Of a DNA stretch of 30,830 nucleotides, positions 1-30,053 are shown in pieces. The notes below the pieces were generated by a model. The model saw nothing but the letters and a program-made list of their open reading frames with translations, was not told where the DNA came from and did no database searches. Source of the DNA: a virus (lineage: Duplodnaviria > Caudoviricetes). Position 1 is the stretch's first letter. The number at the start of each line of letters is the position of its first letter. The stretch is taken from positions 1 through 30,830 of IMG/VR virus record IMGVR_UViG_3300037247_000086. One strand, given 5' to 3'. Made by a program: the position numbers and the translations under genes.

Positions 1-3000
1 TGGCTTTACCGTCAATCTTGAGCATGAATACTTCGTCAGCATTCTGGACTTCACCATAATCAATGCGCTCTACAACCATACCGGTCTTTTTGTCCAAATC
101 CTTACGCATCTTGAACGTGCCAACCTCCCATAAATCCTTGTTTGGATTTGCCTTGGCAAGTTCGTATAATCCGCGCCCAAGAGAGTTCTTCTCACCACGG
201 ATTAATGATGCTTTGTAATCGGCTGTGATGTTGCTCAAAATATCTGCCGGTCTGGTTGTCCTGCCTAAAGCCCTACGGACTTCAGTGCCACGAATATCCA
301 TACCCTTGCCAACTGAACCAAACTTCTCGTCTTCGGGTGACTCTTCCCATCCCTTCAACGGTACATAGGTTTCGTTAAAGTTGGTTTTCTTTCCCCAATC
401 AGCCAAGACTTCAGGTATTAACAACTGGTAATCAGAATAGTTTTTGCGGGTTGCATCGGTTATCTGGCGCACATATTCAGCCAGTTTTTTGTACGTCTTG
501 GCCTGTGGCCCTGATTCGATTTCCTTAACAATTTTTGCAGCCTCGGCATTGGTCATGCCTGAACCGGAATCATTCGATGGGTCGCGTGTGCTTATCAGCG
601 CATTGCGCGAAGGCGCGTGCAGAGCGTATAGATAATTGCCAATCTCGGAATTTGTAATACCGTTACGCGCTGCCAATTTCAGCATAGGCTCAAGAGTGTT
701 GCGCTCAAGTTGTTCAAACCTGTCACCGACGCGTCCGTAAATCAGAGACTCGCGCTCATAGACCTGCATAAAATCGGACACAGCATTGCCGCCAGATTCT
801 ATCGCTTCAATAATTCGCCTAACCGGAATCATCCTATCCTGCAATTGTTGACGCAAATCCATGCGTACTTTCTTGGTGCCTTCGTCCAACTTCTTCCAGA
901 ACTTTAATTCATCATTATGCAACGCCTGTTTCAGCGTCATGGAAGGTAATGTCCAGTTATCGAAAGCGGTTTCAGGATTGTGCGATGGCTTTGTGCTCAA
1001 TAGCGGCTTTTCACTAGCAAGCAACCTAGCACTCTCACTCTCTGCCGGTGCGAAGGCTGCGTTTATTGAGCGTATGTTTTTAGGGTCGAAAATAACGGTT
1101 ATATCTGTTATCACATGCCCCTCATCGGTATATCCGTCTAGTGTGTTTTCCAACAAAACAGAGTCATGCCCACTCTCTTTTGCCTTAGCAATAACGTCAG
1201 CGTAACTCGCATCTCTATACTCACGCCCTTTGTAGTCGTGCGTGAATTGCTTTCCTGTCCTCAAATATACGGGCAGCACATTCCCCCCATAGGGGTCTAT
1301 GATACTTGGCAGTCCCAGCAGTTTTAGTATGCCCTCATTAAATTTCTTGTATCCGCCAAAGGTTGCTTTGTTTAGTTTCTCGATAAACTTGAATGACCCA
1401 TCAGTGTACGGGTCGGAACGCTCTGCATAACTTGAGGCTGTGCCTGCGTCCCGCACAAAGAAGAACCCCATTTTAGCTGACTTGGCCTCGGTTTTTTTGC
1501 CCATCATTTCTACATCAAACGCACGTATGTCGCCCGATGTTCCGTGATACCAAATAAACTCTGTATCGAACCCTTGCTCTTTTGCTCTTTTCGCTTGACT
1601 TTCGTAATCCATCGGCAGGGTTGACGGTGGTGCGCGTTCAGCCTGTGCGCCAACCAGTTCGCCACCAGCGGCTTCAGATGACCTCCGAATGATACCGTAT
1701 ATGTCAGCATCAGACATGCCGCTTACGTCACGCTTAAGCAGTTTGGATAGGACTCGCTTAACCTTTTCGTAATAGCGCGCAAGTGCTCCGCGCCATGCCG
1801 ATTTCATTCCGGTCGGAACCTTGACCTGATACCTGTCCTGAATATTCTCGTAGTTCTCGGTCTGACGGGCTGCATCCAGTTCGGCCAAGGCTTCGTCGGT
1901 TGCGATACGTTGCGCTATCTGTTCGCTGTACTCACCCTTTTTAACATCGTCGGCAAGTTTACGTTGCTGGTAAACCTTGTTGGCAATGCGGTCTACAACC
2001 TTGTTGGTTCTCGCTTCGTCAAGGGCTTTTGTAATGGTGCTACCGTAGGCTACGCGCATCCCTCTATGCAGAGCTTCATGATAGCCTACCCACACAACTC
2101 GGTCTTCATTACTAAACTGGTCAGCAAATAAGAAGATAGTATCCGCATTCGGGTCGCCCTCAATATTCGGATAGTACATGCCCTCGATTACATCACCCGT
2201 CTGAGTGCGTAACGGTTCGGCTAATTCGCTTTTCTCCAAATCAGCAATAGAACCCACAACCTTAATCTTATCCGCTACCGGCTTGTTGAAGGTTTTGTCT
2301 ACTATAGCTTGGGTTTTCTCTACTGATAGACCGGATGGGGTTGCTTTGGTTTTGCTTGCGAGTAAATCTGCGCTGCTTTTCTTGGCGGGGTCAAATGCTG
2401 CTTCTGTCTTCCGCGCCTGTGACGGGTCAAACATAACAACGTGCTCAGTATCTTGGTCAATGCCTTCCATAGCATGAGGACGCTTAGAACCATATCCAAA
2501 TTTGTCATATACAGTTGCGTCAATAACGCCATCAAAACCAGCGTCCTGAAGGGCTTGACGGTAAACCTCGGAATTAATAATTCTTCCTTGGTCATCCTCT
2601 GCGTACCAAAGTAACGAGTCATCCTTAGCCATCTCAGTGCCACGCATGATTTTGTCTAAGTCTTTGGCTGAAATACCGCCGTCATACACATAGTCTGCAA
2701 GACGGTCAATCAGTCCGTCAACATCATGTCCTGAGTATCGCAATGAATTTATGAAGTCAGGCAATGCGCCTTCAGGCTCGTTCTCATAACCAGCCTCTAT
2801 TGCTAAGTCTCTGGCTTCTTCTTTTATGGCATCATCGTATTCTTCTTCGGTATCAAAATCCTCACGACTTTGACTTGATGTGCTCCGCGCCTCATCCATG
2901 AAATCAGCAGGGTCTTCTTGTTCAGATTCAGACTCAACGAACGAAGGCTTTTCACCACCAAGTCTAAACGGATTGTCCAACTTGACCTTCAGTTGCATAA

Positions 3001-5869
3001 TGTTTTCTTTGCCGCCTGCCAATTCTTCTTCTGCAATCTCTTTGGCCGCTACATCTGGCAAGTCTTTTAGGGCATCGCCCTGATAATAAAAGCCCTCACC
3101 ATATTCACTTTCGCTTTGGATTTCTTCTGCTCTGCGTTCAATCTTGTTGGTTAGGTCTGCCCCCTCAAGACTTGAATAATTGATGCTCGCATCGTCTTCA
3201 GATGTCGTGCTGTAAATTCCCACACCCCAATCGCTTTCAGGGTTTGATTTTGACATATCAAAAGCGTCAATGTCGTATGTCGTGGCATGGAATACGTCTC
3301 TAGTGAACCCCATATCTTTAGCACGCGCCATGCGACTTGCTTCATCCATTGGCAGGGTAGAGAGCAACGGCTTTTCAGGTTTCAGCTTAACAACCGCTTC
3401 CTGCTTTTCCTCAAACAAGTCAGCCGGTCTTTCACCAGCAAATAACTCACCCTTGCCTGCTTCTACAGGTACGGTTTCAATTCCAGGTTTGCCACTGCGC
3501 TTTTCAGTCTTCTCACGCGCTTTGTCGGCGAGTGCTTGTTGCTTGCTTACGTCTTCGGTGAGGGGGCTGGGCGGGATTTCAGCGGCTTCTTCTGCTTGAG
3601 CAGTTTCCGTGCGTGCGCCAATATCTCTTTCGCTGTCTTGTTCACTTACAGTCTCCATAGCGGCGGCAAGTTGCTGAACACCTTGCGCTACCGTAATCTC
3701 TTTATTATCAATCTTTTCGGCAATAGAATCAACATCTACGCCTGCCGATAGCCCTTGTGTCATCCAATCGGTGAGTGCGCGTGTTTCGCTATCTGATTCC
3801 GGTATGTAATCTTCTTTTGCGTATAACGGCTCTTTGCTGAGTTCAACTTCCTGCCAATCTTCCTCTACCTTCGCCCGTTCAATTTCACCAATGGCGTTTT
3901 CAGCTTCATTGATTTGGTTTTCAAGACTGATAGCATCAGCGTACCGTCCATCGGCATTGCCGTTAATAACGTCATTGATAAACGCTAAGGCATCATTGGC
4001 ATCGACACGCCCGTACTCATCGTATATTTCCTGCGGGATAGCAAAGCCGTTTTTAGAATCCCGTTCTTCCATCAGGAACTCAGCAACATCATCTAGCGTC
4101 ATGCCGCCCTTCGCCCTGAATAAAGGCTTACTGAACGGCATACCTGTCTTCGCACCTATCCGGCTTTCAAGCCTCCTGTCCTTAACCGCTTCAGGGTCAA
4201 TGCCGTTTGAAATCCAATCATCACGATTCAACCCGCCACGCTTGGCAAGGTAAGTCAGGATGTCATCCTTGAGCGTGTCAATCTTGATTGTTTCAACACC
4301 AGCGCCCATGCCAATTTCAATATCCAGTTTGCGCCCTACCTGCTGTTTCAGCTTGCGAACATGCTGTTGGATGGAATCAATATCGTCGGGCTTGTATGGC
4401 GCAACCTTCGGCATTTCGGTTGGAGGCTGAACAACATCTTCCTCAATGAGCGCTTCCGCACGCGCACGCTGTCCCAATACCGCATCTGGAAGCTCCGTAT
4501 CGGCTACGAAAGGCTTAACCAATGCTGGGATGGCAGTTTCGGGAGATATGGGCTGTATAGGCTCTGCAACGCGCTTAACGGCAGGAACTACAGCCCTTGC
4601 ACCCGCAGCATCAATGTCTTTCTTCGCTTGGTTAAAGCCTGCGTCGAAAGTAGGCAATGCTCCGCCCGTTGGGGCTTCTGTGTATTCAATTTGTGGGGCT
4701 TCTGTTGCACCCATTAAAGAGGCTTCAGGTAGCGCAATACCCGGTTGCGCCCTGCCCCGCCGCTTAATACCGAATGCTGATGTTATCGTGGTCAGCAAGA
4801 AACCAAGAACGCCGCCGACTTCGGCTGACTCATCCACGCCTTGCCATAAACTACGCTCTTCATCGTAGCCAACAATCTCTTTTGCGGTCCAGTTGTTTGC
4901 GAAATCCATCAAGCCCTCTTGGAATGCCTCTCCAATAGCGCCTACCGTTCCGGCAATACCAACCTTGGCTATCTTGCTTTTCACGCGGTCAGTGACGTTT
5001 CTGCTAAACCAACCGCCCGTAGCCTTATTCAAGCGAGAGAAAGCGAACTCAATTGGGGCAACTTCCGTTAAGCCCCATGCAGCGCCAATGTTTGCTGAGT
5101 GCATGGCATCTTCAAATGAAGCGCCACTCTGGATAGCGTCTGCAAACTGAGCGTCGGCATTCATTCCAGCACCCGCCAAAGCACCAACAAAGGGACTAAC
5201 CAATGTTGTTCCCATAAATACCGCCATTGAACCAAGCCCCTGTGCCGCCTTTGACAAAAACAGTTCATCATACTTAGGGTTGGTTTCAAACGTCTTGTTA
5301 GACCAATCGACTAATTTCTGACCCTCTTTGTAAACACGCGCATCTTGTATTTCGGCCAATCCTGGCGCTGTTTCCTGTGCGATCCTGCGAATGCTGTCTA
5401 GTTCTTCTTGCGCCTTATCACCACGTAGCGCCCTGAATCCGCGAATATCAATAGCCTGTTCTTTCGGGTCTGTGAACTGTGGGGAGAAAGGATGGTCTAG
5501 TTTTTCTCTGCGTTGGCGTAGGTCATCAACTATTGAAAATCCTTTTACCATTCCACCAGCGCCACCGACAAAACCCCTGCCGACCCTTGCCGCTAAATCT
5601 TCACCACGCCCAATCTCAGGCTCTCCGCCCATAAGAGAAGCATCAGGAACTTCAGCCGGTCGCCCCACATCGGATGGGTCAAAATCCAAGGTTGTCTTTA
5701 TTGCAGGCGTGAACTCGCCAAACGCCGCATCGGGCATCGGCATGAAGGCGCTTACGAACTCCCTCTTGTCGGAACCAGAATAGAATTTGTTGTACAACGC
5801 ATCCGCTAAATCGGTATCGGACGTACTTTCATACTGCGGATACTGTTGACGGAACTCTGTAATGTTCAT
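1..5869 (-). CDS. Giant polyvalent virion/ejected protein, 3'-truncated (>1956 aa): N-terminal ejection-protein region, ART-like domain 1, zincin metallopeptidase, ART-like domain 2, LPD38-like region
   Basis: ATG at 5869 abuts the upstream TAA. Manual translation (MNITEFRQQYPQYESTSDTDLADALYNKFYS...) shows no stop before the window edge, which explains its absence from the ORF track. Motifs: VFHAT...GIYST...GFDGV...HVVMFDPSQAR (~2370-3360); VGYHEALHRG (HEALH 2066-2080); WYHGT...GFFF...NVLPVYL...GHDSV...TVIFDPKNIRS (~1015-1625); YLYALHAPSRN...GSGMTNAEA...YVPLKG...RRALGR (<850). Confidence 0.88.
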   Translation of the reverse strand, partial: MNITEFRQQYPQYESTSDTDLADALYNKFYSGSDKREFVSAFMPMPDAAFGEFTPAIKTTLDFDPSDVGRPAEVPDASLMGGEPEIGRGEDLAARVGRGFVGGAGGMVKGFSIVDDLRQRREKLDHPFSPQFTDPKEQAIDIRGFRALRGDKAQEELDSIRRIAQETAPGLAEIQDARVYKEGQKLVDWSNKTFETNPKYDELFLSKAAQGLGSMAVFMGTTLVSPFVGALAGAGMNADAQFADAIQSGASFEDAMHSANIGAAWGLTEVAPIEFAFSRLNKATGGWFSRNVTDRVKSKIAKVGIAGTVGAIGEAFQEGLMDFANNWTAKEIVGYDEERSLWQGVDESAEVGGVLGFLLTTITSAFGIKRRGRAQPGIALPEASLMGATEAPQIEYTEAPTGGALPTFDAGFNQAKKDIDAAGARAVVPAVKRVAEPIQPISPETAIPALVKPFVADTELPDAVLGQRARAEALIEEDVVQPPTEMPKVAPYKPDDIDSIQQHVRKLKQQVGRKLDIEIGMGAGVETIKIDTLKDDILTYLAKRGGLNRDDWISNGIDPEAVKDRRLESRIGAKTGMPFSKPLFRAKGGMTLDDVAEFLMEERDSKNGFAIPQEIYDEYGRVDANDALAFINDVINGNADGRYADAISLENQINEAENAIGEIERAKVEEDWQEVELSKEPLYAKEDYIPESDSETRALTDWMTQGLSAGVDVDSIAEKIDNKEITVAQGVQQLAAAMETVSEQDSERDIGARTETAQAEEAAEIPPSPLTEDVSKQQALADKAREKTEKRSGKPGIETVPVEAGKGELFAGERPADLFEEKQEAVVKLKPEKPLLSTLPMDEASRMARAKDMGFTRDVFHATTYDIDAFDMSKSNPESDWGVGIYSTTSEDDASINYSSLEGADLTNKIERRAEEIQSESEYGEGFYYQGDALKDLPDVAAKEIAEEELAGGKENIMQLKVKLDNPFRLGGEKPSFVESESEQEDPADFMDEARSTSSQSREDFDTEEEYDDAIKEEARDLAIEAGYENEPEGALPDFINSLRYSGHDVDGLIDRLADYVYDGGISAKDLDKIMRGTEMAKDDSLLWYAEDDQGRIINSEVYRQALQDAGFDGVIDATVYDKFGYGSKRPHAMEGIDQDTEHVVMFDPSQARKTEAAFDPAKKSSADLLASKTKATPSGLSVEKTQAIVDKTFNKPVADKIKVVGSIADLEKSELAEPLRTQTGDVIEGMYYPNIEGDPNADTIFLFADQFSNEDRVVWVGYHEALHRGMRVAYGSTITKALDEARTNKVVDRIANKVYQQRKLADDVKKGEYSEQIAQRIATDEALAELDAARQTENYENIQDRYQVKVPTGMKSAWRGALARYYEKVKRVLSKLLKRDVSGMSDADIYGIIRRSSEAAGGELVGAQAERAPPSTLPMDYESQAKRAKEQGFDTEFIWYHGTSGDIRAFDVEMMGKKTEAKSAKMGFFFVRDAGTASSYAERSDPYTDGSFKFIEKLNKATFGGYKKFNEGILKLLGLPSIIDPYGGNVLPVYLRTGKQFTHDYKGREYRDASYADVIAKAKESGHDSVLLENTLDGYTDEGHVITDITVIFDPKNIRSINAAFAPAESESARLLASEKPLLSTKPSHNPETAFDNWTLPSMTLKQALHNDELKFWKKLDEGTKKVRMDLRQQLQDRMIPVRRIIEAIESGGNAVSDFMQVYERESLIYGRVGDRFEQLERNTLEPMLKLAARNGITNSEIGNYLYALHAPSRNALISTRDPSNDSGSGMTNAEAAKIVKEIESGPQAKTYKKLAEYVRQITDATRKNYSDYQLLIPEVLADWGKKTNFNETYVPLKGWEESPEDEKFGSVGKGMDIRGTEVRRALGRTTRPADILSNITADYKASLIRGEKNSLGRGLYELAKANPNKDLWEVGTFKMRKDLDKKTGMVVERIDYGEVQNADEVFMLKIDGKA

Positions 5870-16064: not shown

Positions 16065-17060
16065 TCATGGATTCAAGGTAACAGCGAACTCGCCGCGTGC
16101 CAGCCAAGTTTCATTGAGGATTTGGTTAACCTGATACCAGAGAACGCCAATATCGACGAACTTGCCAGTAGGATCGGCACCCTTAACAGGACCGGTCAAG
16201 ATGTTAGGCTTAACAGAATCAAAGCCTGCCAAAATGCACGTTCCATAGGAGTCCATTCCAGCAACTACCAGTGGGTATACATCATTCTTGGTTCCGTTGT
16301 TGATCTTGGAACCATCGGACGTTGCACCGCCACCGCTTACAGGGAATAACTGCGGTGTCAGCACGAAGCAAACATCTTCCACCTGACCAAACTCGTAAGG
16401 TACTGACTTGCCGTTACCCTTTTCGGATACGTGGACAAAGCCAGGAAGATTACGAATGTCAGACTTCATGTTGGTATGACCCAACGCGACATATGCTGCC
16501 TCGGTTGGAACTGTGCCTTCAAAGTTGCCGCCCTTGTTGATTTTGTTAAACCAACTGGCCTTGGCATCATCCAGTGCGCGGGTGATCTTGCGAATTCGAC
16601 CCAGCGTAATGGCGGTGTCAACCTGTGCACGTGCGGTATGAGCCGCTGTGTCGTAAAATACTGACGTACCGGTGATGATTTCGTTCCATGTCAGAAGTTC
16701 GTTCACGTTTATGATGAACTCAGCCTGCAAGGTAGCTGCATCTTTCACAGCCGCCTGTTCAGACAAACGCCACTTCTTGCTTGAAACCCGTACAAGGTGC
16801 TCGTATTCCTTGATAGCCATCTGGACATTTTCATAGTCCATACCTACGGCTTCAGGGACCACGCCCTCAGTAGCTTCGGTATCATCGAAACCAAAAGGAA
16901 CCAGACGGTCAATGGAGAGTGTGTCAGACTCGTTTTGTGGCAAAGTAAATTTCTTTGCATACCTGTCAAGACAGGCAATTGGTCCCGCATGTTTCAACAG
17001 TTCTTTTTTGTGAAGAACGTTTGTCGCTTGGGCGGGATTACTATATGTTGCAATAGGCAT
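16065..17060 (-). CDS. Major capsid protein, N4-gp56 family, 331 aa
   Basis: Motifs LPQN...TEGVVP, YVALGHTNMKSDIRNLPGF, EFGQVEDVCFVLTP, DVYPLVVAG.DSYG, ADPTG and ILNETWLARGE match the family pattern; GGAGG RBS; follows the scaffold gene. Confidence 0.9.
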   Translation of the reverse strand: MPIATYSNPAQATNVLHKKELLKHAGPIACLDRYAKKFTLPQNESDTLSIDRLVPFGFDDTEATEGVVPEAVGMDYENVQMAIKEYEHLVRVSSKKWRLSEQAAVKDAATLQAEFIINVNELLTWNEIITGTSVFYDTAAHTARAQVDTAITLGRIRKITRALDDAKASWFNKINKGGNFEGTVPTEAAYVALGHTNMKSDIRNLPGFVHVSEKGNGKSVPYEFGQVEDVCFVLTPQLFPVSGGGATSDGSKINNGTKNDVYPLVVAGMDSYGTCILAGFDSVKPNILTGPVKGADPTGKFVDIGVLWYQVNQILNETWLARGEFAVTLNP

Positions 17061-17080: not shown

Positions 17081-18346
17081 TTATGGTATGTCTGGGTCTG
17101 CGGCAATAAGCTGATTGTAATAAGCTCTTTGCCCCGCTTCCGTATCAAGGTCAAGTTTTGTTCCTGGCTTGATAGGGCTGCGCTTGCTGCCCGGACTCCG
17201 GTCTTGTAACTGTTCGCGCCTTCTGCTTTCCAGCTTTGTAACCTTTGGGTCGGCCTTCTGTTCTGCTTCGGAAATAACAACACCCAAATCAGTTTTGAAT
17301 CGGGTCAAGATAGTGTCACGTTGGAAATCAGCGATTGTCCTGACATCCACATCTGGATTAATCCCCTCACCTTCAGCCCATCCACGGAACAGCGGAGAAT
17401 GCTGTGCTTGCTGTAGGCTGTGGAAGTCTTCTGGCTTCTGGGGTGGTTTCCAGTCTGGGTTGTCGCGGGTGAACGCATCCAATAACGCAATGTTATCGGC
17501 AGCATACGCGCTGTTAATCAACTTAACTGTATCTTGTGATTGCTTGCCTAGCCACTCATTTAGTTCAGGTGAAAAACGTCTTTCGCCCCAATCTGAATAA
17601 GCGGTTGCCAAGTGTTGTATTTCTTCCTGTTTATCAGGGCCAACTATGGTTTCTTGCTGTACAGCAGGAGTCGCAGTCTCAAGAACTTCGGCTACACCAT
17701 CCAATGAATCTTTAAAAAGTTTCTTTAGTTTGGTTGCTTCTTCTGGAAACTCTGAAAACTCCTTATCTATCTTTTCGTTGTGATCCTTAATTATGTCCTC
17801 AACGTTAACGCTTGGTCGCATTTTCTCAGCGGCTTCCCTGAGTGTCCTGTTCTCTCTGGTCAATCGGGTTATCGCTCGCTGTGCAGGCTGCAACTGGCCT
17901 AAATGTGAGTCAACTCTTTGGTTTGAACGGGCGAGCACTTCACTCGACCTTTCAATAAATTTATCCGCCTTTGTCCTGTCTTCTTCGGACAAGGTATCCA
18001 GCCACTCCAAACCCGTTGGTTTCTTTTCTTCTTTGGCTACGGGCTTGCCGTCTTTGTCTAATTCTTCCTCGACAACCGGCTTGCCGTCTTCGTCAAGTTC
18101 CTGCTCAACAACAGGTTTACCATCTTCACCAAGTTCTTGCTCGACGGGCTTTTCGTCCTTCTCTTCCTCTTCAATCTCAACAACAGGCTCAGCCTTAACC
18201 TCTACCTCAAGGTCAGGGTCAGCTTCAACCGCTTGGTCGTACATCGCCCGTTCAATCTCTTCAACGGACTTGCCTTCCATATCGGTTCCTTCCGTACCGG
18301 GAACGATTACGGCTTCTTCTTCAACAATCTGTTCTGTCTGGCTCAT
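17081..18346 (-). CDS. Putative capsid scaffolding protein, 421 aa
   Basis: Very acidic disordered N-terminus, coiled-coil middle, located between portal and capsid genes. Confidence 0.72.
   Translation of the reverse strand: MSQTEQIVEEEAVIVPGTEGTDMEGKSVEEIERAMYDQAVEADPDLEVEVKAEPVVEIEEEEKDEKPVEQELGEDGKPVVEQELDEDGKPVVEEELDKDGKPVAKEEKKPTGLEWLDTLSEEDRTKADKFIERSSEVLARSNQRVDSHLGQLQPAQRAITRLTRENRTLREAAEKMRPSVNVEDIIKDHNEKIDKEFSEFPEEATKLKKLFKDSLDGVAEVLETATPAVQQETIVGPDKQEEIQHLATAYSDWGERRFSPELNEWLGKQSQDTVKLINSAYAADNIALLDAFTRDNPDWKPPQKPEDFHSLQQAQHSPLFRGWAEGEGINPDVDVRTIADFQRDTILTRFKTDLGVVISEAEQKADPKVTKLESRRREQLQDRSPGSKRSPIKPGTKLDLDTEAGQRAYYNQLIAADPDIP
18039..18150 (-). repeat. Three tandem 12-aa (36-nt) repeats, KPVVE(Q/E)EL(D/G)(E/K)DG
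   Basis: KPV-EQELGEDG KPVVEQELDEDG KPVVEEELDKDG KPV within the scaffold. Confidence 0.85.
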
Positions 18347-18357
18347 TTAAATCTCCA

Positions 18358-18633
18358 TCAAGTGTTGTCGGTGTTGAGATTGGGTATACCAAAATCATCA
18401 CCGGTTACAGGTGTGCGGTTGCGCTCCTGCTTGATAAGTTTGGGCAGTCTTAACAGTTCCTTTAACCTGATAATGTCGCCAAGTGCTAAATCTAATTCAC
18501 GCTGTTCAAGCTTCTTGTCCTCGCGGATTTCTCTCATTCGCCCCAATTCAAAATTAGCCCACGCTTCAACTGACTGCCATGCGGGATTGCCGGGTTCGAT
18601 AACCGCTAAATCTTGTAGTTTGAATTTAGCCAT
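18358..18633 (-). CDS. Small hypothetical protein between portal and scaffold (~91 aa)
   Basis: ATG 18633 overlaps the portal 3' end. A small helical gene at this position is typical of these podoviruses. Confidence 0.65.
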   Translation of the reverse strand: MAKFKLQDLAVIEPGNPAWQSVEAWANFELGRMREIREDKKLEQRELDLALGDIIRLKELLRLPKLIKQERNRTPVTGDDFGIPNLNTDNT

Positions 18634-20941
18634 GAGAGTCAAAACCCATTTCCATGTTCTTGCGCGTCTGTGCGAGTTTCTCTGCTTCCAGGCTTGCCAT
18701 GTAACCCTTCGTCAGTTCTTCACGGCGTTCCTTTAACCGCCCCAAAAGAAGCTTCGTTTCATTTGCGCGGTTGCCAAGTTCAAACTTGGATTGAATGTCT
18801 GACAGCTTAATGTCTCCGGACTTGGCCGCTTCAATGGCGCTGCCCTGTAGTTTCATGTCCTGAACTTTGAGTTCAACTTCCATGCGGTCATAAGACAACT
18901 GAGTTTCCGTGTACTCTTTCTCACTCATGCCGCCATCGCCTTCACCCTTGCCATTTGCTCTGGACATAAGCTCGGCTGCCTCTGCCTTCAACTTATTAAG
19001 CTCGGCCATTTCTTTCTCGCTCGGCTTCTGGGCATCCTTCATTTCTTCTTCGGATTTCATCAGGTCATCAGCGTCAACCTCTGCTGCCTTCAGGATGCTC
19101 TTTAACAGTTTGTCGTCCTTCATGTACGGTGCAAAGCGGTCATTGGTGGTCATGTCAGCAATCATTATCAAGTTCTGGGTCTGCATGTCCTTCACAACCA
19201 ACTTGGTTGCGCCCATTGGCTTAATCGTCATGTCGCCCTTGGCTTCATCATCGTCAAGGTAAATCATGTTGTAATCGTACAAAGCTGATATTGACGGCTC
19301 GATAATCTCATCGTCGTAGGACTGGGCAATACGGCGCTGAATAACGTTCTGTGTATTTATTAACATCGCCACCGACTTGAGCGCCATCTTAGTCTCTGCT
19401 TCTGTGGGCGCTCCCTGTGCAAGTTGCGTCCAAGACAGTTCTTCGTCGGCGTTCTGCCTTGCGCGCTCATGGACTGCGGTCAGTGCATCAATTCGGGTAT
19501 CAATCTGGAACATCTGGAATGCGTCATTAACTTTCTTTTCAGGGTCGGTCAAGTACCACTGTTTCATGCCACCAGCTATTTCTTCAGAACCATCAGCAGG
19601 CTCTACAGCGCCCTTATCGCGCACCAACATCGGCCCAGCACTCAGGGCAGCGTTGTGTAGAATCATGTGCCATGTGGACTGTATAACGCGGTCTGAGTCG
19701 CGCATGAAGTAAGGTACACCATAGCCAAATACGGTGGTTTCTGATTCTTCGTAGTTCCAGACGTAATACGGTAGTCGGTACGCGCCTTCAAGGGCATGTC
19801 GTTTAATCTTCAGCAGGCGGGTATTGCAGAACCAAGCTTCGATAATCGGGTCAACAATATCCAGTTCATCGTCAACATCAACGCCAAGATTCTCCATGTC
19901 CTCGCGGTTTAACGATCCGGTGTACTTCCATACTGAATAGCGGTTATCGGTCGGCATGGTTTCGCCGGTTACATTCGCACGCTGAATCAATGAACTCGAA
20001 TACTCTCCGCTATGGTTAGGTTGTTCCTTCAAGACCTCCGCAATCATTTCGTGGTCAAATCCAGGCAGAAGCCTTAATTCCTGAATCTCGCGCCGGTTCA
20101 TCAACTGGTCAATGAATACCCCTTCACACCTAGAGATATGTTCTGCCGGTAATGGATAGAAGCTCCACGGGTCAATGCACTTGAACTCAGGCATTGGCTC
20201 TTCTTCCATCTGGACAACCCACTGACCATCAGGTAGACGGTGACGGGCTTTCTTGTATGAGCCTGCAACCACCGGCCCCTCAAGTACGCCAGTGCCAATC
20301 TTGCAGCCATCCATGATGACTTTGCGCTGTTCGGAGTTATACCGGCTTTCAGTAAGTTGGTCATCCATGTGAGTACGCATATGGTCTGCGCGTTTCTCTG
20401 CGTCCTCAATCTCCTGCTTTGCCAAGTCAGCCTTGGTTACCGGTCGCATTTGGGGCATAGGCGGCTGTGGTCGTGTCTGTGGTGCGCCTTGCACTACTTC
20501 AGGATTCTGTTCCGGCCCCGGTTGCTGGCTCTCATCTGGAACCATCGCTATCTGACCGGTGCTCGGGTCAGTGACGTATGAATTGTCATCCATCATCTTG
20601 ACCATGCTCGGAACCGGCGTGCTGGAAATATCCCAACTGCGCTCATTGCTCGGAACCAGCATATTGATAATGCGTGCTGCAATGGAGAGTGTTCGGGTTC
20701 GGGTCAGGTGAACAACCGGTGGAGAACGGCGTACTGCGCTTCGATAGTCGGTATCACCTTTGGATATTCGGTCAAGGGTATTGCCCTCGAACTGCTGTAG
20801 GTCACGCAACCATCTGGACTCTACTTCTGACCTGTCGCTTACTGCTGTGTCCCGCTTGCCCTCAAGTACCTGTACTATCTCGGTAATGGGCGCATCCTGC
20901 TTGGACATTTCCAGCCCTTGCTTGTGCTCGTACAAGTCCAT
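18626..20941 (-). CDS. Portal protein, 771 aa
   Basis: Size and position; motifs DGCKIGTGVLEGP, IDPWSFYP and FGYGVPYFMRD; long C-terminal coiled coil (barrel). Confidence 0.88.
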   Translation of the reverse strand: MDLYEHKQGLEMSKQDAPITEIVQVLEGKRDTAVSDRSEVESRWLRDLQQFEGNTLDRISKGDTDYRSAVRRSPPVVHLTRTRTLSIAARIINMLVPSNERSWDISSTPVPSMVKMMDDNSYVTDPSTGQIAMVPDESQQPGPEQNPEVVQGAPQTRPQPPMPQMRPVTKADLAKQEIEDAEKRADHMRTHMDDQLTESRYNSEQRKVIMDGCKIGTGVLEGPVVAGSYKKARHRLPDGQWVVQMEEEPMPEFKCIDPWSFYPLPAEHISRCEGVFIDQLMNRREIQELRLLPGFDHEMIAEVLKEQPNHSGEYSSSLIQRANVTGETMPTDNRYSVWKYTGSLNREDMENLGVDVDDELDIVDPIIEAWFCNTRLLKIKRHALEGAYRLPYYVWNYEESETTVFGYGVPYFMRDSDRVIQSTWHMILHNAALSAGPMLVRDKGAVEPADGSEEIAGGMKQWYLTDPEKKVNDAFQMFQIDTRIDALTAVHERARQNADEELSWTQLAQGAPTEAETKMALKSVAMLINTQNVIQRRIAQSYDDEIIEPSISALYDYNMIYLDDDEAKGDMTIKPMGATKLVVKDMQTQNLIMIADMTTNDRFAPYMKDDKLLKSILKAAEVDADDLMKSEEEMKDAQKPSEKEMAELNKLKAEAAELMSRANGKGEGDGGMSEKEYTETQLSYDRMEVELKVQDMKLQGSAIEAAKSGDIKLSDIQSKFELGNRANETKLLLGRLKERREELTKGYMASLEAEKLAQTRKNMEMGFDSHG

Positions 20942-21095
20942 TTTCTATGATTGCTCCACGGGTTGTCCCTAATATATCACGCGGGTGGGAGATTTCCTAC
21001 CCGGATAGTAAATACCCACACTTTAGACAGGCTTTCGCCTACCCGTAGGTATAGTTATTTGAGAGTTATTCTACTAAATGAGAATTACTGTAGAT

Positions 21096-21278
21096 TAAGC
21101 GGGGCAGGCCAGCATATATTCGGCAATGAACAACTGACATTGAACCGCAAAGACGCGCCCTTTTGATTTAAGGGTATGACCTGCCTTATTTAGCTGCCCC
21201 GCTTAGAAGTGCTGGCTTGCGGGAGAATGGTTAACAACTCCACTTGCGAGACCTTAAGACTCGCTACAAAACCAGCAC
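21096..21278. ncRNA. Candidate structured RNA elements: two adjacent multibranch folds
   Basis: Perfect 12-bp inverted repeat 21096-21107/21194-21205 enclosing two hairpins, then a 7-bp stem 21209-21215/21272-21278 enclosing two hairpins, all in a 383-nt gap with no convincing ORF. Confidence 0.45.
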
Positions 21279-21324
21279 ATCTAAACAGTCGGGGTTGCTG
21301 GCAGGCGTATCTTGTATCCGAACC

Positions 21325-21690
21325 TCAGTTCCAGCCTTTAATCGGAACCCCAATTTTAACCTTCTTGCCGACTAAATCGTGACCGTACTTGATATTATGC
21401 TCTAATTGCTTGGTCCTTGACATCCCTAAGCTCGGATTGTGTGACCATAGGCCATTTTCGTTCCACGAGCCTAAAGGACAAATGCCAGGTACTTCCTTCT
21501 GTGCGTCTGGATGAAACGCCCCATGAAACTGCGGATAATTCCTTGTTATCTCGCATGTGTCTTCTTTTTCATCGCCACAAAAACAACATTGGGAATAAAT
21601 GGTTAGCGTTTTCTTTGTCCTGCTAGACGCGACATCATGCCAACAACAAGTAGGGTCAGCGCCTTTCTTGCCCTTGCAACTCACGACCAT
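21325..21690 (-). CDS. Hypothetical Cys-rich protein, 121 aa
   Basis: Overlaps the upstream gene end; CCWH...CCFCG is a possible metal site. Confidence 0.55.
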   Translation of the reverse strand: MVVSCKGKKGADPTCCWHDVASSRTKKTLTIYSQCCFCGDEKEDTCEITRNYPQFHGAFHPDAQKEVPGICPLGSWNENGLWSHNPSLGMSRTKQLEHNIKYGHDLVGKKVKIGVPIKGWN

Positions 21691-22025
21691 CTACCCTGTG
21701 GCGGCATTAGGTTTGTCTTGTTGTAGAAGCGTTCAGGCTTATATGCCCTTCCTGCTCGGTTTGGAATCTTTAACAGGTCAGCGGCAAAGTCTGGATGTCC
21801 GTATGCGTAATACACATCGGTTCCTTTTGAAAGCTCTCGCCACACAAGCTTATCCGTAATCCTCCGAATGTCCTCAGCGGTCAGGAGCGGAGCCTCAATG
21901 AACTTAATGTCCTCAACCCTACCATAACTCATGCCTGCACGATTCGTCCCAAACAGCAAAGCAGTGGGAACCGCTACAGCCGCAGCACCTATGCCTACTT
22001 TCTTTAGGAACTCTCTGCGTTTCAT
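21681..22025 (-). CDS. Twin-arginine-signal protein carrying capsid-like and terminase-Walker-A-like segments, 114 aa
   Basis: MKRREFLKK plus a hydrophobic stretch (Tat consensus RRxFLK). Three segments align by eye to the major capsid of this window. Confidence 0.75.
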   Translation of the reverse strand: MKRREFLKKVGIGAAAVAVPTALLFGTNRAGMSYGRVEDIKFIEAPLLTAEDIRRITDKLVWRELSKGTDVYYAYGHPDFAADLLKIPNRAGRAYKPERFYNKTNLMPPQGRWS

Positions 22026-22306
22026 AATTTAGCCACCCACTTTGAACACTCAACTACGATAGAATCTGTCCCTGCATAGTCGTTAACCGATAACGGTACA
22101 TCGCCCCATGTCTTAGCGTCCGGTGGATTCATCATGCGATTGATTCTTTCTGCCGCCTTGCGTTGCTGATTTTCAGCATCCACCAACATTGACAGACCTG
22201 ACGCGGTTCGCTCTGCTGGATGAATCACACCAGCCGCCACCGTCATAGGAATTGCGACTACCGCAGCGCCCATTGCTGTGTTCTTTATGAAGTCTCGACG
22301 TTTCAT
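22022..22306 (-). CDS. Twin-arginine-signal protein carrying portal-like segments, 94 aa
   Basis: MKRRDFIKN, hydrophobic stretch and VAA possible cleavage site; RTASGLSMLVDA motif; ATGA-type overlaps on both sides. Confidence 0.72.
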   Translation of the reverse strand: MKRRDFIKNTAMGAAVVAIPMTVAAGVIHPAERTASGLSMLVDAENQQRKAAERINRMMNPPDAKTWGDVPLSVNDYAGTDSIVVECSKWVAKL

Positions 22307-22770
22307 GATTTTAGTCTCACAGGGAAAGCACCGGTAATTATGCCCTTGTCAGGAAAACCGTAAGGCTTGCCGTCTTTGTCTAAGTATTTGGTGTTTGGTG
22401 GAACTGTCACTTTATACTTTCCGTGAGCGGGAGGCCCTATTCTTGCTATCTTGCTTCGCGGAATAAAGCTCCATCCATCACCACCTGAAACCCTAAAGCA
22501 TCCACTGCCGTCTTTTGTTATGTTGTCAGCCGCCTCCCAAATATAGTGAGGCTCTACCACCGCCACCCCTGACCAGTCTGTTTCCCCGTCCTCGCGCACA
22601 ACCGCAAACTGTTTCCCTATCCTTACGGGAGACTGAACGATGTCGCAAAGCTCTAGGCCGCTTTCGTCAGAGTATTTAACCACAAACGGCAACTCTACAA
22701 ACCCGTGTCTTATCTCGTATTCCGGAATCGGTTTATCATTAACTAAAAATTGCGTCTTTTTTGAAAACAT
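22303..22770 (-). CDS. Hypothetical protein (~155 aa)
   Basis: The track starts it at GTG 22779. ATG 22770, behind AAAGGTGAAGATT, is preferred. Confidence 0.6.
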   Translation of the reverse strand: MFSKKTQFLVNDKPIPEYEIRHGFVELPFVVKYSDESGLELCDIVQSPVRIGKQFAVVREDGETDWSGVAVVEPHYIWEAADNITKDGSGCFRVSGGDGWSFIPRSKIARIGPPAHGKYKVTVPPNTKYLDKDGKPYGFPDKGIITGAFPVRLKS

Positions 22771-22786
22771 AATCTTCACCTTTGCT

Positions 22787-23050
22787 TCACCAATAAAATG
22801 TACGTGGATTATAACTCTCTACCTGAATAAGCAACCTACTCTTTATCCAGTAATCCCTTATGTCTATCAACCAATACCATTTTCTTATGTGCTGTTTGAG
22901 TATGTAGATTGCTCGATTGCTGACCATGTACCAATCAGTATGCGTTGGCGTTATTGGGAGTTTGAATGGTGAAACTATTTGCAAGTCTTCGCAGAACCGC
23001 TTTTTGTCGCTTTCTGATACTTGGTCCCAGTTGATGTCCTGATTTGCCAT
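22787..23050 (-). CDS. Hypothetical Trp-rich protein, 87 aa
   Basis: ORF with an AAAGGCGAAGATT leader, co-oriented with its neighbours. Confidence 0.55.
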   Translation of the reverse strand: MANQDINWDQVSESDKKRFCEDLQIVSPFKLPITPTHTDWYMVSNRAIYILKQHIRKWYWLIDIRDYWIKSRLLIQVESYNPRTFYW

Positions 23051-23106
23051 AATCTTCGCCTTTCAATTAATCACTGTGAGTATACACCCAAATAGGGGGT
23101 TAGGTC

Positions 23107-23265
23107 TTATGTGTTAAAGCCGGTGAAGGTTTGGTGTGCGCCGGAAACCTTGCCGCAACCAGAACACTGGAATGCTACCCAGAGCCGACCGTCATCATCA
23201 TACTTGGTAACAACCCTGCCACCGTTCCAGCCGAACAGGTGGGCTATAAGGTGGATAATGCTCAT
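23107..23265 (-). CDS. Small CxxC protein, 52 aa (below the track cutoff)
   Basis: ATGA overlap with the terL stop; MSIIHLIAHLFGWNGGRVVTKYDDDGRLWVAFQCSGCGKVSGAHQTFTGFNT. Confidence 0.6.
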   Translation of the reverse strand: MSIIHLIAHLFGWNGGRVVTKYDDDGRLWVAFQCSGCGKVSGAHQTFTGFNT

Positions 23266-24716
23266 ATGCTATACCCATCACCAAACTTAGGAACCGATAC
23301 CCTGGATGACGAACGCTTGACCGGCTTGGTCTTGAATGTGGTCATGTTCGATAGCAGGTAGAGTGTTGCGTCCATCAGGTCATCGAAGCTCTTGTCAATC
23401 TTGCCTTCATTGCGGTGGTACGATTCGTATTCCTCGCGCCACATCTGTAGTGTATTAAAAACCTTTAAGTGTCCGGTTTCAACTCTTTGGCGCATTCGGT
23501 AGATATTTGATTCTTGGTCCTGCTTATTAGCCTTGATGAGCTTTAAACCCAAACCCTTGTAAATGTCTATCATCCGCTTGCCATCAGAGGCATTCGTTCC
23601 TGCGGTTTCGGAATTACCCCTAATCCACTTGCCTCGCATATCAATTGCCGAAGCATGGATAGCGGGAAGCTCCTCTTTCATCCGGTGCTCAGAATACAGG
23701 TAGACAATATCATTCTCTCTGTCCCACGCGCCCCACACAACCGCTGTAGGATGAGGACTCCACCCGAAATCCATTCCATACGCTCTGGGCCAGAAATCCG
23801 GTATCTTGAACGGCTTGCAACTTAGAACTTCATCAAAATCTGTAGTGAAGATAGCTCCACTCCCCATTTTAGGTATGCCCCATCTTCGGGCTTTCATTTC
23901 ATGTGCGGGAAACCGTCCTTTGTAAATCTCAATCTTTTCAGGCGTGATATGCGGTACGTTATCCCATGTCAATACACCCTTGTAAACCGAAGGGTCTTGC
24001 CCATTCGCCCGTTTCGTCAGGTCGAGTGTAAGCTCGGTCTGTCCCTTCATTGGGGTATAGGTATTAAACACTACACCCATGTAGTCAAATACGCGCTGTA
24101 CGTTCTCACGATGGATGTCTATGGGTGCCTCTTCGTCTTCCCAAACGTAATGTCGCTTGGTTGCTTCAAATGCGGTCCTGCCTGAATCATACGACTTCAG
24201 GTTGATAATTGAGTTATCACCGGATACGTGCTTGACCATCAGCGTGTCATATAGGTTCGGCGTACCCATAGCTTTCTTGCACTCACCAATAATTAGCCTG
24301 TCTCTAGGGATTAAGCCGGTTCCCATTTCGCGCTCAGGAAAGCCTATCAGTTTAATTTGAACAGAGTCACGTACCGTCTTGCCGTCCTTGCCTGCTACAA
24401 CGCCCGAAGTAGCCCCATCGAACCGCCTACCCTCCCACCAACTCGGATAATCCCCGGTGGCGAAAAGTGCCGCAAGATAAGCACCCGCCTCAGTTTTGCC
24501 CGTTCGATTGCCGCCCAAAATGAAACTTTCCATGAAGGTTTTTGTGGAATTGAAGAAGTTGACAGTCTCACCATACAGGTCACGTCTTAACGGCCCATCA
24601 TCAGGAAACAGGAAGTCTATTCGCCTGAACTTCATACGCTCAAGCATTTCAATCTTCTGCTGTGCCTGCGCTTGGTAGAGTTCTTCCAGATACTTTGGGT
24701 CTGTCTTTTTTGTCAT
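23262..24716 (-). CDS. terL: Terminase large subunit, 484 aa
   Basis: Walker A GGNRTGKT, Walker B YVWEDEE, motif III TYTP, nuclease GMDFG...HPTA and DDLMDATLY. Confidence 0.95.
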   Translation of the reverse strand: MTKKTDPKYLEELYQAQAQQKIEMLERMKFRRIDFLFPDDGPLRRDLYGETVNFFNSTKTFMESFILGGNRTGKTEAGAYLAALFATGDYPSWWEGRRFDGATSGVVAGKDGKTVRDSVQIKLIGFPEREMGTGLIPRDRLIIGECKKAMGTPNLYDTLMVKHVSGDNSIINLKSYDSGRTAFEATKRHYVWEDEEAPIDIHRENVQRVFDYMGVVFNTYTPMKGQTELTLDLTKRANGQDPSVYKGVLTWDNVPHITPEKIEIYKGRFPAHEMKARRWGIPKMGSGAIFTTDFDEVLSCKPFKIPDFWPRAYGMDFGWSPHPTAVVWGAWDRENDIVYLYSEHRMKEELPAIHASAIDMRGKWIRGNSETAGTNASDGKRMIDIYKGLGLKLIKANKQDQESNIYRMRQRVETGHLKVFNTLQMWREEYESYHRNEGKIDKSFDDLMDATLYLLSNMTTFKTKPVKRSSSRVSVPKFGDGYSI

Positions 24717-27082: not shown

Positions 27083-27952
27083 TTACGCATTGCTGGATGG
27101 GCGAGCCTGGGTGAATCTGATTAAGTCAACACTCAGGGTCGTGGATACCGGTGTACCATCTTCAGCAGTTGCAGCGATGTACGGCACAAGTACCGCAGTC
27201 GTGGCAACAGCGGTTAGTTCGGTGAACAACAACACACCGTCGATGTAGTACATTGCATCACCTTTGGCATTCACAACTATCTTCAACATCTGATAGGTGT
27301 TTACCGTTGGTTTGCCTGTTGCAAGCAAGCAATCAAAAGCAGCAGCGGCGTGGGCGATTGTCCCGCCGTTCTCGCTGGTGCAATACCAGTTGGTGACGTT
27401 GGTCGCCTCAGAATCCTGACAGAAGCTCAGGGCATCATCAACCGTCAGTCCGTCATCGGCAATAACATCGGCCTTAACCGTATGGAGCACAGCTTCTGCT
27501 GAATCATCAGCTATCTTGTCACTCAAGCCAACACACAGGGTTGCCCCGGTAATGTGGGATGTAGACACCCGCGCCTCGAAAACTATCTCTCCAAGGCTTA
27601 CAAGTTGTCCGTGAGTCAATGTCAACGCACTCATGACGGTTGCATCAGCTACACCAGCAGTACCAGCAGTACCACTCACTAAATTAACCTTGCCTTCCGG
27701 TGCCAACACAATCGCAGCCGATGCCGCAGAAGTGCCACCACCATCAAATGAGAGCCATTGGTTTGCCCAACTATCATCAGCTACCGCCGATTGCTTGAAG
27801 TCATCAAACAGCACCATTGATTCCGATATATCTATAACGCCGGTATCAAGTGCCAGTGTATCGACCAAATCCAGCAGTGCTCGCTCGACGCGCTTGTTAA
27901 CGTGTATGTTCTGTACGACTAGCCTTAGTTCGGCTTTTGTTTCTCTGTCCAT
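27083..27952 (-). CDS. Beta-rich virion-like protein (possible lectin/ConA-like fold), 289 aa
   Basis: AAGGAG RBS and own terminator; Ala/Thr/Val/Gly-rich; LFDDF...IVFEARV...MYYIDG...LSVDLI pattern. Confidence 0.55.
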   Translation of the reverse strand: MDRETKAELRLVVQNIHVNKRVERALLDLVDTLALDTGVIDISESMVLFDDFKQSAVADDSWANQWLSFDGGGTSAASAAIVLAPEGKVNLVSGTAGTAGVADATVMSALTLTHGQLVSLGEIVFEARVSTSHITGATLCVGLSDKIADDSAEAVLHTVKADVIADDGLTVDDALSFCQDSEATNVTNWYCTSENGGTIAHAAAAFDCLLATGKPTVNTYQMLKIVVNAKGDAMYYIDGVLLFTELTAVATTAVLVPYIAATAEDGTPVSTTLSVDLIRFTQARPSSNA

Positions 27953-29726: not shown

Positions 29727-30053
29727 TCACGGCATCTGGATTGTTACGACAACGCCCGTATCAGATGTGGATACACCGTAAGTACCTTCACTCAAAATCG
29801 CTTCTTGAGGATTGGTAGCAGTTAACTGTACTGCCACTCCACTGCCATCGTAAACCGCAACCCACACTCCGGCTGTCAGCTTCCAAAGGGATACCGTCTT
29901 TGCTCCGGTCACGCCCGATGACGCAAGATGTGGAATTGTGTTATTCCAGAAATGGAACGAGCCAATAACAAAGGAAGAGTCTACAAGGTCTTCAACATTC
30001 GATGGATCGCTAATTGCCGAGTCGGCTGCTGCTACAACGGTTTCATCCCGCAT
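29727..30053 (-). CDS. Hypothetical beta-rich protein, 108 aa
   Basis: AAGGAG RBS inside the 3' end of the endonuclease gene. Confidence 0.6.
   Translation of the reverse strand: MRDETVVAAADSAISDPSNVEDLVDSSFVIGSFHFWNNTIPHLASSGVTGAKTVSLWKLTAGVWVAVYDGSGVAVQLTATNPQEAILSEGTYGVSTSDTGVVVTIQMP

Follow-up and report, generated by a model that had tools for sequence, protein, structure and literature searches.

An ORF of 114 aa in a metagenomic phage genome, here called P0001, encodes a twin-arginine (Tat) type leader followed by a cargo assembled from motifs of the N4-gp56 family of major capsid proteins (MCPs). The similarity of P0001 to the capsid protein is real and far above chance. Judged from the alignments, the order of the matching pieces is permuted relative to the capsid protein under every map.

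The window, by which we mean the whole stretch of 30,830 nucleotides that was analysed, is a 30.8 kb virus record (Duplodnaviria; Caudoviricetes) from a marine sediment metagenome, with an estimated completeness of 50%. The genes for the terminase large subunit, a portal-like protein, a scaffold-like protein and the MCP are all located on the minus strand. The structural model of the 331-residue MCP matches the N4-like capsids of N4, B2 and Moo19 with E values of about 1e-20, and among cultured phages with a named host, those of Stenotrophomonas, Pseudoalteromonas and Xanthomonas have the closest capsids, at 30-35% identity. The terminase and portal genes flank an accessory island of small ORFs, two of which, P0001 and the tandem gene P0056, start with twin-arginine leaders. 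Of 19 loci, the two with the most similar terminases lack both Tat genes: L010 (terminase 75%) has about 0.2 kb between terminase and portal, and L011 (terminase 68%) carries, at the island site, two ORFs that by eye resemble a methyltransferase and a nuclease. Our filter retrieved no comparable leader gene from 108 loci that surround a related capsid or terminase gene, with eight metagenome loci being too short to cover the island. In run X1, possibly the source sample, the island region lies on a single contig and shows no differences. A promoter scan gave 3 matches where 3.1 are expected by chance.

Elsewhere in the window, a very large virion-type protein (2..5869, minus strand, 3' end open) has a match to an ART-PolyVal domain (PF18760, 46 bits). 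Two ORFs upstream of the terminase gene (27083..27952 and 29727..30053, minus strand) resemble, by eye, beta-rich virion decoration or lectin-like proteins, with no family match passing E 0.05.

Capsid similarity of the P0001 cargo

The best one, two, three and four ungapped pieces of P0001, taken in any order, scored 61, 95, 127 and 151, respectively, against the window's own MCP, and none of these scores was reached in shuffled sequences (0/3000 at each number of pieces). For comparisons across the family we used three N4-gp56 profiles, representing 35 close MCPs, 85 distant MCPs and 56 MCPs of an "HPD" type. The three- or four-piece score in the three profiles was reached by 0/500 shuffles and by 0/102 natural leader ORFs. 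The HPD set was fetched by a motif picked after the query was known, so that part of its score arises by construction; 104 motif-bearing ORFs gave 61 distinct ones of 250-450 aa, 56 of which matched the first profile. In a ranking by an MCP profile of 22,163 stop-to-stop ORFs, taken from the 108 loci and the window, P0001 was the top non-MCP match below 260 aa, apart from two cut MCPs (E 0.048). None of the curated capsid families in Pfam, PHROGs and TIGR04387 scores P0001 at default filters, as would be expected of a chance resemblance, but this explanation is hardly credible: both the shuffles and the natural controls refute it, and each of the three subfamily profiles assigned the same MCP positions to the pieces.

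All three profiles place aa33-47 on MCP 223-237, aa60-73 on MCP 123-136 and aa72-88 on MCP 190-206 (Table 1). The hairpin at aa33-47 scored 16-19 bits, with 0/400 shuffles in each profile. The piece at aa60-73 scored 22.7, 18.7 and 11.7 bits in the close, distant and HPD sets (0, 0 and 3 of 400 shuffles), and that at aa72-88 scored 14.5, 21.1 and 21.8 bits (0/400 each), the third figure being inflated by selection. The start of the aa60-73 match lies in helix 101-128 of the MCP model, the long spine helix, and this helix is described as part of the P-domain (bioRxiv 2022.09.09.507160). The strongest match to the window's own MCP, which has aa60-73 as its core, extends from aa44 to aa73 against MCP 107-136, with 12/30 identical residues, a score of 61, a BLASTP E value of 3e-5 and 0/3000 shuffles. 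The helix at aa47-60 was placed at MCP 150-163 by all three profiles, with 8.7, 10.7 and 15.7 bits (34, 7 and 0 of 400 shuffles), a placement significant only in the distant and HPD sets, and the spine register, MCP 110-123, reached 7.9 bits in the close clade, near the 8.7 bits of 150-163. From these scores, an origin from MCP 150-163 is plausible but contested.

A three-piece map (hairpin, spine helix and strand-helix; MCP 224-237, 111-136 and 192-206) amounts to a circular permutation plus a deletion, whereas the four-piece map is a true shuffle without circular permutation. A two-piece map confined to the A-domain also has the order of a circular permutation, and leaves the strong match to the spine end unexplained. 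With any single profile, the gain from the fourth piece is no more than chance (9.0-12.1 vs 9.5). The joints of the four-piece map fall on residues common to both neighbours (Leu47/48, Leu60 and Tyr72/73), and in the MCP model they link helix to helix and strand to strand. Shared-residue joints may be the expected trace of recombination at short homologies, but local alignments also yield such overlaps.

The first-pass annotation of this DNA had aligned three segments of P0001 to the window's MCP, and its coordinates, sequences and identity counts (7/15, 6/13 and 6/17) are correct. The segments score 40, 23 and 38. The hairpin and the strand-helix hold up, whereas aa48-60 against MCP 151-163 falls, at 23, below the shuffle mean of 27.7 for the best single piece and is significant against other subfamilies only. 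Their sum of 101 was reached in 2/3000 shuffles; with L48 counted once, the sum of 97 was reached in 12/3000 shuffles and also by 4/119 natural 114-aa pieces of other ORFs in the window. The strongest match, at aa44-73, had been overlooked. Local alignment with shuffling, which the annotation proposed, does yield a significant combined match for the best pieces (0/3000), and the permuted order that it described is retained in every surviving map. Its suggested search with the N4-gp56 family HMM came out negative, in that TIGR04387 had no match to P0001 as compared to 175 bits for the real MCP.

The N4-gp56 family (TIGR04387; HK97 fold; PDB 9e99 and 9d82), of which the window's MCP is a member, is the source of aa33-88. 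P0001 covers about 55-60 of the 331 MCP residues, out of order, and since it is missing the N-arm, the E-loop and the P-domain sheet it would be unable to build a shell.

Table 1. Positions of P0001, its segments and the genes discussed, in window coordinates.
Feature	Position	Strand	Match or score
MCP, N4-gp56 family, HK97 fold (donor family)	16065..17060	-	TIGR04387 175 bits, cut-off 60
Portal-like gene	18626..20941	-	
Accessory island with both Tat genes, terminase large subunit to portal (2.3 kb, small ORFs)	20942..23261	-	
P0001, 114-aa ORF, Tat-type leader + capsid-motif mosaic	21681..22025	-	
C-terminal tail, aa89-114, without capsid match	21684..21761	-	at most 2.3 bits, reached by 171-285 of 400 shuffles
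Piece 4, aa72-88 = MCP 190-206, strand + helix	21762..21812	-	
Piece 3, aa60-73 = MCP 123-136, spine-helix end + G-T-x-V-x-Y strand	21807..21848	-	
Piece 2, helix aa47-60, contested between MCP 150-163 (A-domain helix) and 110-123 (spine helix)	21846..21887	-	
Piece 1, aa33-48 = MCP 223-238, beta-hairpin (A-domain by reading of model)	21882..21929	-	
Twin-arginine-type leader, aa1-27, K-R-R-E-F-L then hydrophobic stretch	21945..22025	-	TIGR01409 18.6 bits, cut-off 16.7
P0056, tandem 94-aa Tat-leader gene, related leader, different cargo	22022..22306	-	TIGR01409 20.8 bits
Terminase large subunit	23262..24716	-	

Fold, age and conservation of the cargo

The AlphaFold2 model of aa31-114, predicted from the single sequence, was unconfident (pLDDT 45.5, pTM 0.26). 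A Foldseek search with this cargo model gave no capsid match and no match at E 0.001, and the rows of so unconfident a model are meaningless; the Atlas model of P0001 is likewise poor. The structure prediction that the earlier annotation had called for thus matched no capsid, and its view of the cargo as a permuted A-domain survives in part: the capsid origin and the permuted order stand, while aa60-73 corresponds to the end of the spine helix and not to the A-domain. The A-domain of HK97 is described as a five-stranded sheet (bioRxiv 2022.09.09.507160). Strands 261-267 and 320-325 of the MCP have no counterpart in P0001, so that the core of this sheet is not retained, the A-domain borders being our reading of the MCP model with no residue-level mapping. 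From these models, a folded permuted A-domain is not established.

If aa33-88 did form a circularly permuted mini A-domain, the product could bind capsid protein or procapsids and poison head assembly of related phages, a form of superinfection exclusion. We consider this unlikely. The hairpin and a collinear aa47-88 together reach 54.3 bits in the HPD-type profile, in which aa43-86 aligns ungapped on the A-domain helix-loop-strand-helix with 15.8 bits, partly by construction; in a language-model comparison, aa30-105 fall next to small capsid-family clusters (scores 0.76-0.79), which we take as a lead only. Prophage proteins that block virion assembly do exist, such as the tail assembly blocker Tab of Pseudomonas prophages (PMC10884400). 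Tab is similarly an accessory prophage protein acting on virion assembly, but it blocks the assembly of tails, and the consulted part of that report mentions neither a Tat leader nor a capsid origin. Evidence opposing the exclusion of related phages by such a domain is that aa60-73 fits the spine end, that inclusion of aa61-71 lowers the score in the A-domain register from 15.7 to 12.9 bits, that two sheet strands are lacking and that the unconfident model has no capsid match. Export would also take the product away from the site of head assembly.

Over 55 mapped codons, the P0001 and MCP genes share 30, 35 and 19 nucleotides at the first, second and third positions, respectively, compared to about 50, 51 and 29 between the window's MCP gene and four relatives, which indicates that the copy in P0001 is old or derived from another phage. 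Third positions are far more diverged than first and second positions, part of that divergence having arisen on the MCP branch. The low codon identities and the lack of a blastn match between the two genes led us to reject a recent duplication of the MCP gene, as the first-pass annotation had also concluded from the divergence. For the spine piece, the best fit is to the close clade (mean 61 vs 40), and the window's own MCP ranks 6/120 over three pieces.

The four donor windows fall at the 97th, 84th, 91st and 98th percentile of cross-subfamily conservation, a sum attained by 0.08% of four-window random draws (1.9% for the three-piece map), and this enrichment is partly ascertainment because conserved pieces are the easiest to recognise. 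Residues kept in P0001 track conservation in the family (13/18 vs 4/19, Fisher p 0.003), and the changes are more conservative than under neutral drift (26/3717 simulations). P0001 differs from the MCP at E121 and R203, two residues that are invariant in the family, and 8/33 of the changed residues are found in distant family members. These signals would fit selection for a capsid-like surface; in part they would also fit ascertainment or an unsampled N4-gp56 donor lineage.

No homologue of the cargo was found in 5.8 billion proteins (of near length, or longer for aa30-105), in 1.84 billion 50% representatives, where two unrelated repeat proteins appeared at E 5e-4, or in IMG/VR, where a fixed-spacing pattern for the junction of pieces 3 and 4 had 0 matches. 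Searches for P0001 homologues in cultured phages (best E 3) and among PDB sequences returned nothing usable. Because the cargo has no homologue, selection between copies is not measurable. Gene shuffling in a tolerant accessory site might have left this gene as a by-product that is non-functional or decaying, as its singleton status, its absence from the two closest phages and the alteration of E121 and R203 would allow. We regard this as improbable, given the open frame, the start-stop coupling at the 5' side, the intact leader and the contrast between 19 identical third positions and 30 and 35 of 55 at the other two, even though part of it arose on the MCP branch.

The Tat-type leader in P0001 and other viral genes

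The ATG of P0001 overlaps the stop codon of the upstream gene (ATGA), and its GC3 of 0.50 is like that of the MCP gene. The sequence K-R-R-E-F-L at aa2-7 satisfies, near the N-terminus, the Tat motif Z-R-R-x-hydrophobic-hydrophobic (PMC13673990); Pfam PF10518 gave no match to the leader. The cargo is hydrophilic (best 19-aa hydropathy 0.28), and the Tat system is reported to tolerate hydrophilic cargo even if unfolded (PMC13673990). Tat targeting of the product is likely, since the leader fits the motif and the cargo is hydrophilic. No clear A-x-A signal peptidase site was seen by eye after the hydrophobic stretch, and the product may for that reason remain anchored in the membrane. P0001 thus resembles Tat substrates (TIGR01409/PF10518) in its N-terminal motif, hydrophobic stretch and score above the TIGR01409 cut-off, but differs from them in being encoded by a phage, in lacking a clear A-x-A site (by eye) and in carrying a short capsid-motif mosaic and no cofactor enzyme.

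A single DNA pattern for the leader, applied to about a third of IMG/VR, identified 121 viral loci with 118 distinct ORFs, from which we kept 92 ORFs of 50-220 aa with a hydrophobic stretch, some of them cut at the locus edge. The cargos of the sampled ORFs are mostly unrelated to each other. Eight of the 92 match head, tail or packaging families at E values up to 0.05; two of these eight are cut and perhaps represent complete terminase or protease genes. In L187, a leader ORF just after the terminase gene contains an N4-gp56 N-arm piece (E 0.009). Among 55 leader ORFs with wide flanks, phmmer detected a similar protein in the same locus for only one (BLASTP 0/55), many of these loci perhaps not reaching the structural genes. 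A search of open-licence PMC and bioRxiv texts found no description of a Tat-signal or capsid-fragment type of phage gene, and P0001 apparently belongs to an undescribed class of leader-plus-virion-fragment genes.

Twin-arginine leaders were also observed on apparent terminase large subunits and a prohead protease (L145:8001, L153:8001, L221:301 and L223:324). The leader-fused terminase large subunits of 457 and 524 aa were recognised by eye, and that in L221 by PHROGs. These fusions suggest that the leader is a mobile 5' module.

The leaders of P0001 and P0056 are identical at 13/27 amino acids and 45/66 nucleotides. Searches for P0056 homologues in IMG/VR gave nothing usable. Further into the island, the 3' end of a 158-aa ORF (22364..22383) is identical over 20/20 nucleotides to a repeat in the scaffold-like gene (18042..18061; E 4e-4). 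Both copies are located on one contig, and the match suggests that a short patch of a structural gene was recently copied into the island.

The leader itself could be the working part, occupying or perturbing the Tat translocon or anchoring a small peptide in the membrane, with the cargo an exchangeable filler taken from neighbouring structural genes. This we hold to be possible, if somewhat doubtful. It would account for similar leaders on unrelated cargos across the sampled ORFs, for tandem genes with a common leader and different cargos and for the singleton cargo of P0001; the 20-nt copy of the scaffold gene in the next island gene indicates that capture occurs, and poorly folded Tat substrates are reported to stall transport and slow growth (PMC13673990). 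A filler would, however, not be expected to consist of 56 consecutive residues tiled in frame by conserved capsid motifs, with secondary structure matching at the joints, nor to have changed by conservative substitutions.

A possible capsid look-alike bait

The explanation that we tentatively favour, while far from assured of it, is that P0001 encodes a bait made of capsid motifs, and that Tat targeting removes the bait and a bound partner from the cytoplasm. A twin-arginine-type leader would have been fused to three or four pieces of 14-30 residues each from an N4-gp56-type capsid protein, with recombination at the shared residues Leu47/48, Leu60 and Tyr72/73 linking the pieces in frame. The joining was presumably ancient, leaving time for third codon positions to decay, and the gene was probably then retained by selection. 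The product is predicted to be expressed and Tat-targeted, with the cargo adopting a small beta-beta-alpha-beta-alpha fold. In the cytoplasm, the product would bind a protein that recognises capsids and then take it to the Tat machinery or through the membrane. The most likely partner would be a host defence sensor of capsid protein; a capsid subunit from a competing phage is a less likely candidate.

We favour the bait because hosts sense capsid proteins in the cytoplasm and because bound partners can be transported by the Tat system. CapRel, Avs7, Thoeris and Lit are described as sensing capsid proteins (PMC13728456, PMC12926258), and Tat export of a partner without a signal of its own is reported (PMC10924467). 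The same leader type with virion-derived cargo in other viral contigs (8/92, as above) also argues for a bait. Sensors such as CapRel SJ46, Avs7, Thoeris and the Lit/Gol peptide are plausible targets of a capsid look-alike, but the escape described in the consulted parts of these sources is by capsid mutation and not by a capsid-derived bait (PMC13728456, PMC12926258). It weighs against the bait that Avs sensors are described as reading folds, not short motifs (PMC13728456/PMC12926258), that a capsid mimic could trigger a sensor rather than block it and that 84/92 of the sampled leader ORFs have no match to a virion or packaging family.

Bacterial defences recognise conserved virion proteins that are hard for phages to change. 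If the bait explanation is true, the phage would have a new evasion route, in the form of a gene whose product combines the most conserved motifs of its own capsid family and is sent to the envelope. P0001 also illustrates clearly how a new gene arises by the shuffling of pieces of 14-30 residues. Even if the cargo is filler, widespread Tat-leader genes in phages would point to an as yet unrecognised use of the host Tat pathway.

P0056 contains a weak portal-like motif at aa34-46 (22169..22207, minus strand), with scores reached by 8/1000 shuffles against the portal of L011 and 9/1000 against that of L010, compared to 220/1000 against the window's own portal, which is changed and two residues longer at this place. 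A motif that matches the portals of relatives but not its own would fit self-avoidance. An N-arm-like motif seen by eye in P0056 was rejected (p above 0.6 in all profiles). In its broadest form, the bait explanation would have uncultured phages run a general "bait-and-export" system, in which a reusable twin-arginine leader is combined with shuffled signature motifs of virion proteins, here the capsid and next door possibly the portal, and the baits bind those host sensors that detect phage structural proteins and drag them to the Tat translocon or through it. So general a system seems to us a rather long shot.

A Cys-rich ORF of 121 aa (21325..21690, minus strand), which overlaps the 3' end of the P0001 gene, has two stretches similar to MCP 293-306. 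The first, aa9-22, shares six identical residues with synonymous differences and scores 19.7 bits (0/300 shuffles), and the second, aa102-115, scores 14.1 bits (p 0.04), both in the close-clade profile only. By these matches, the ORF may be a second capsid-derived mosaic.
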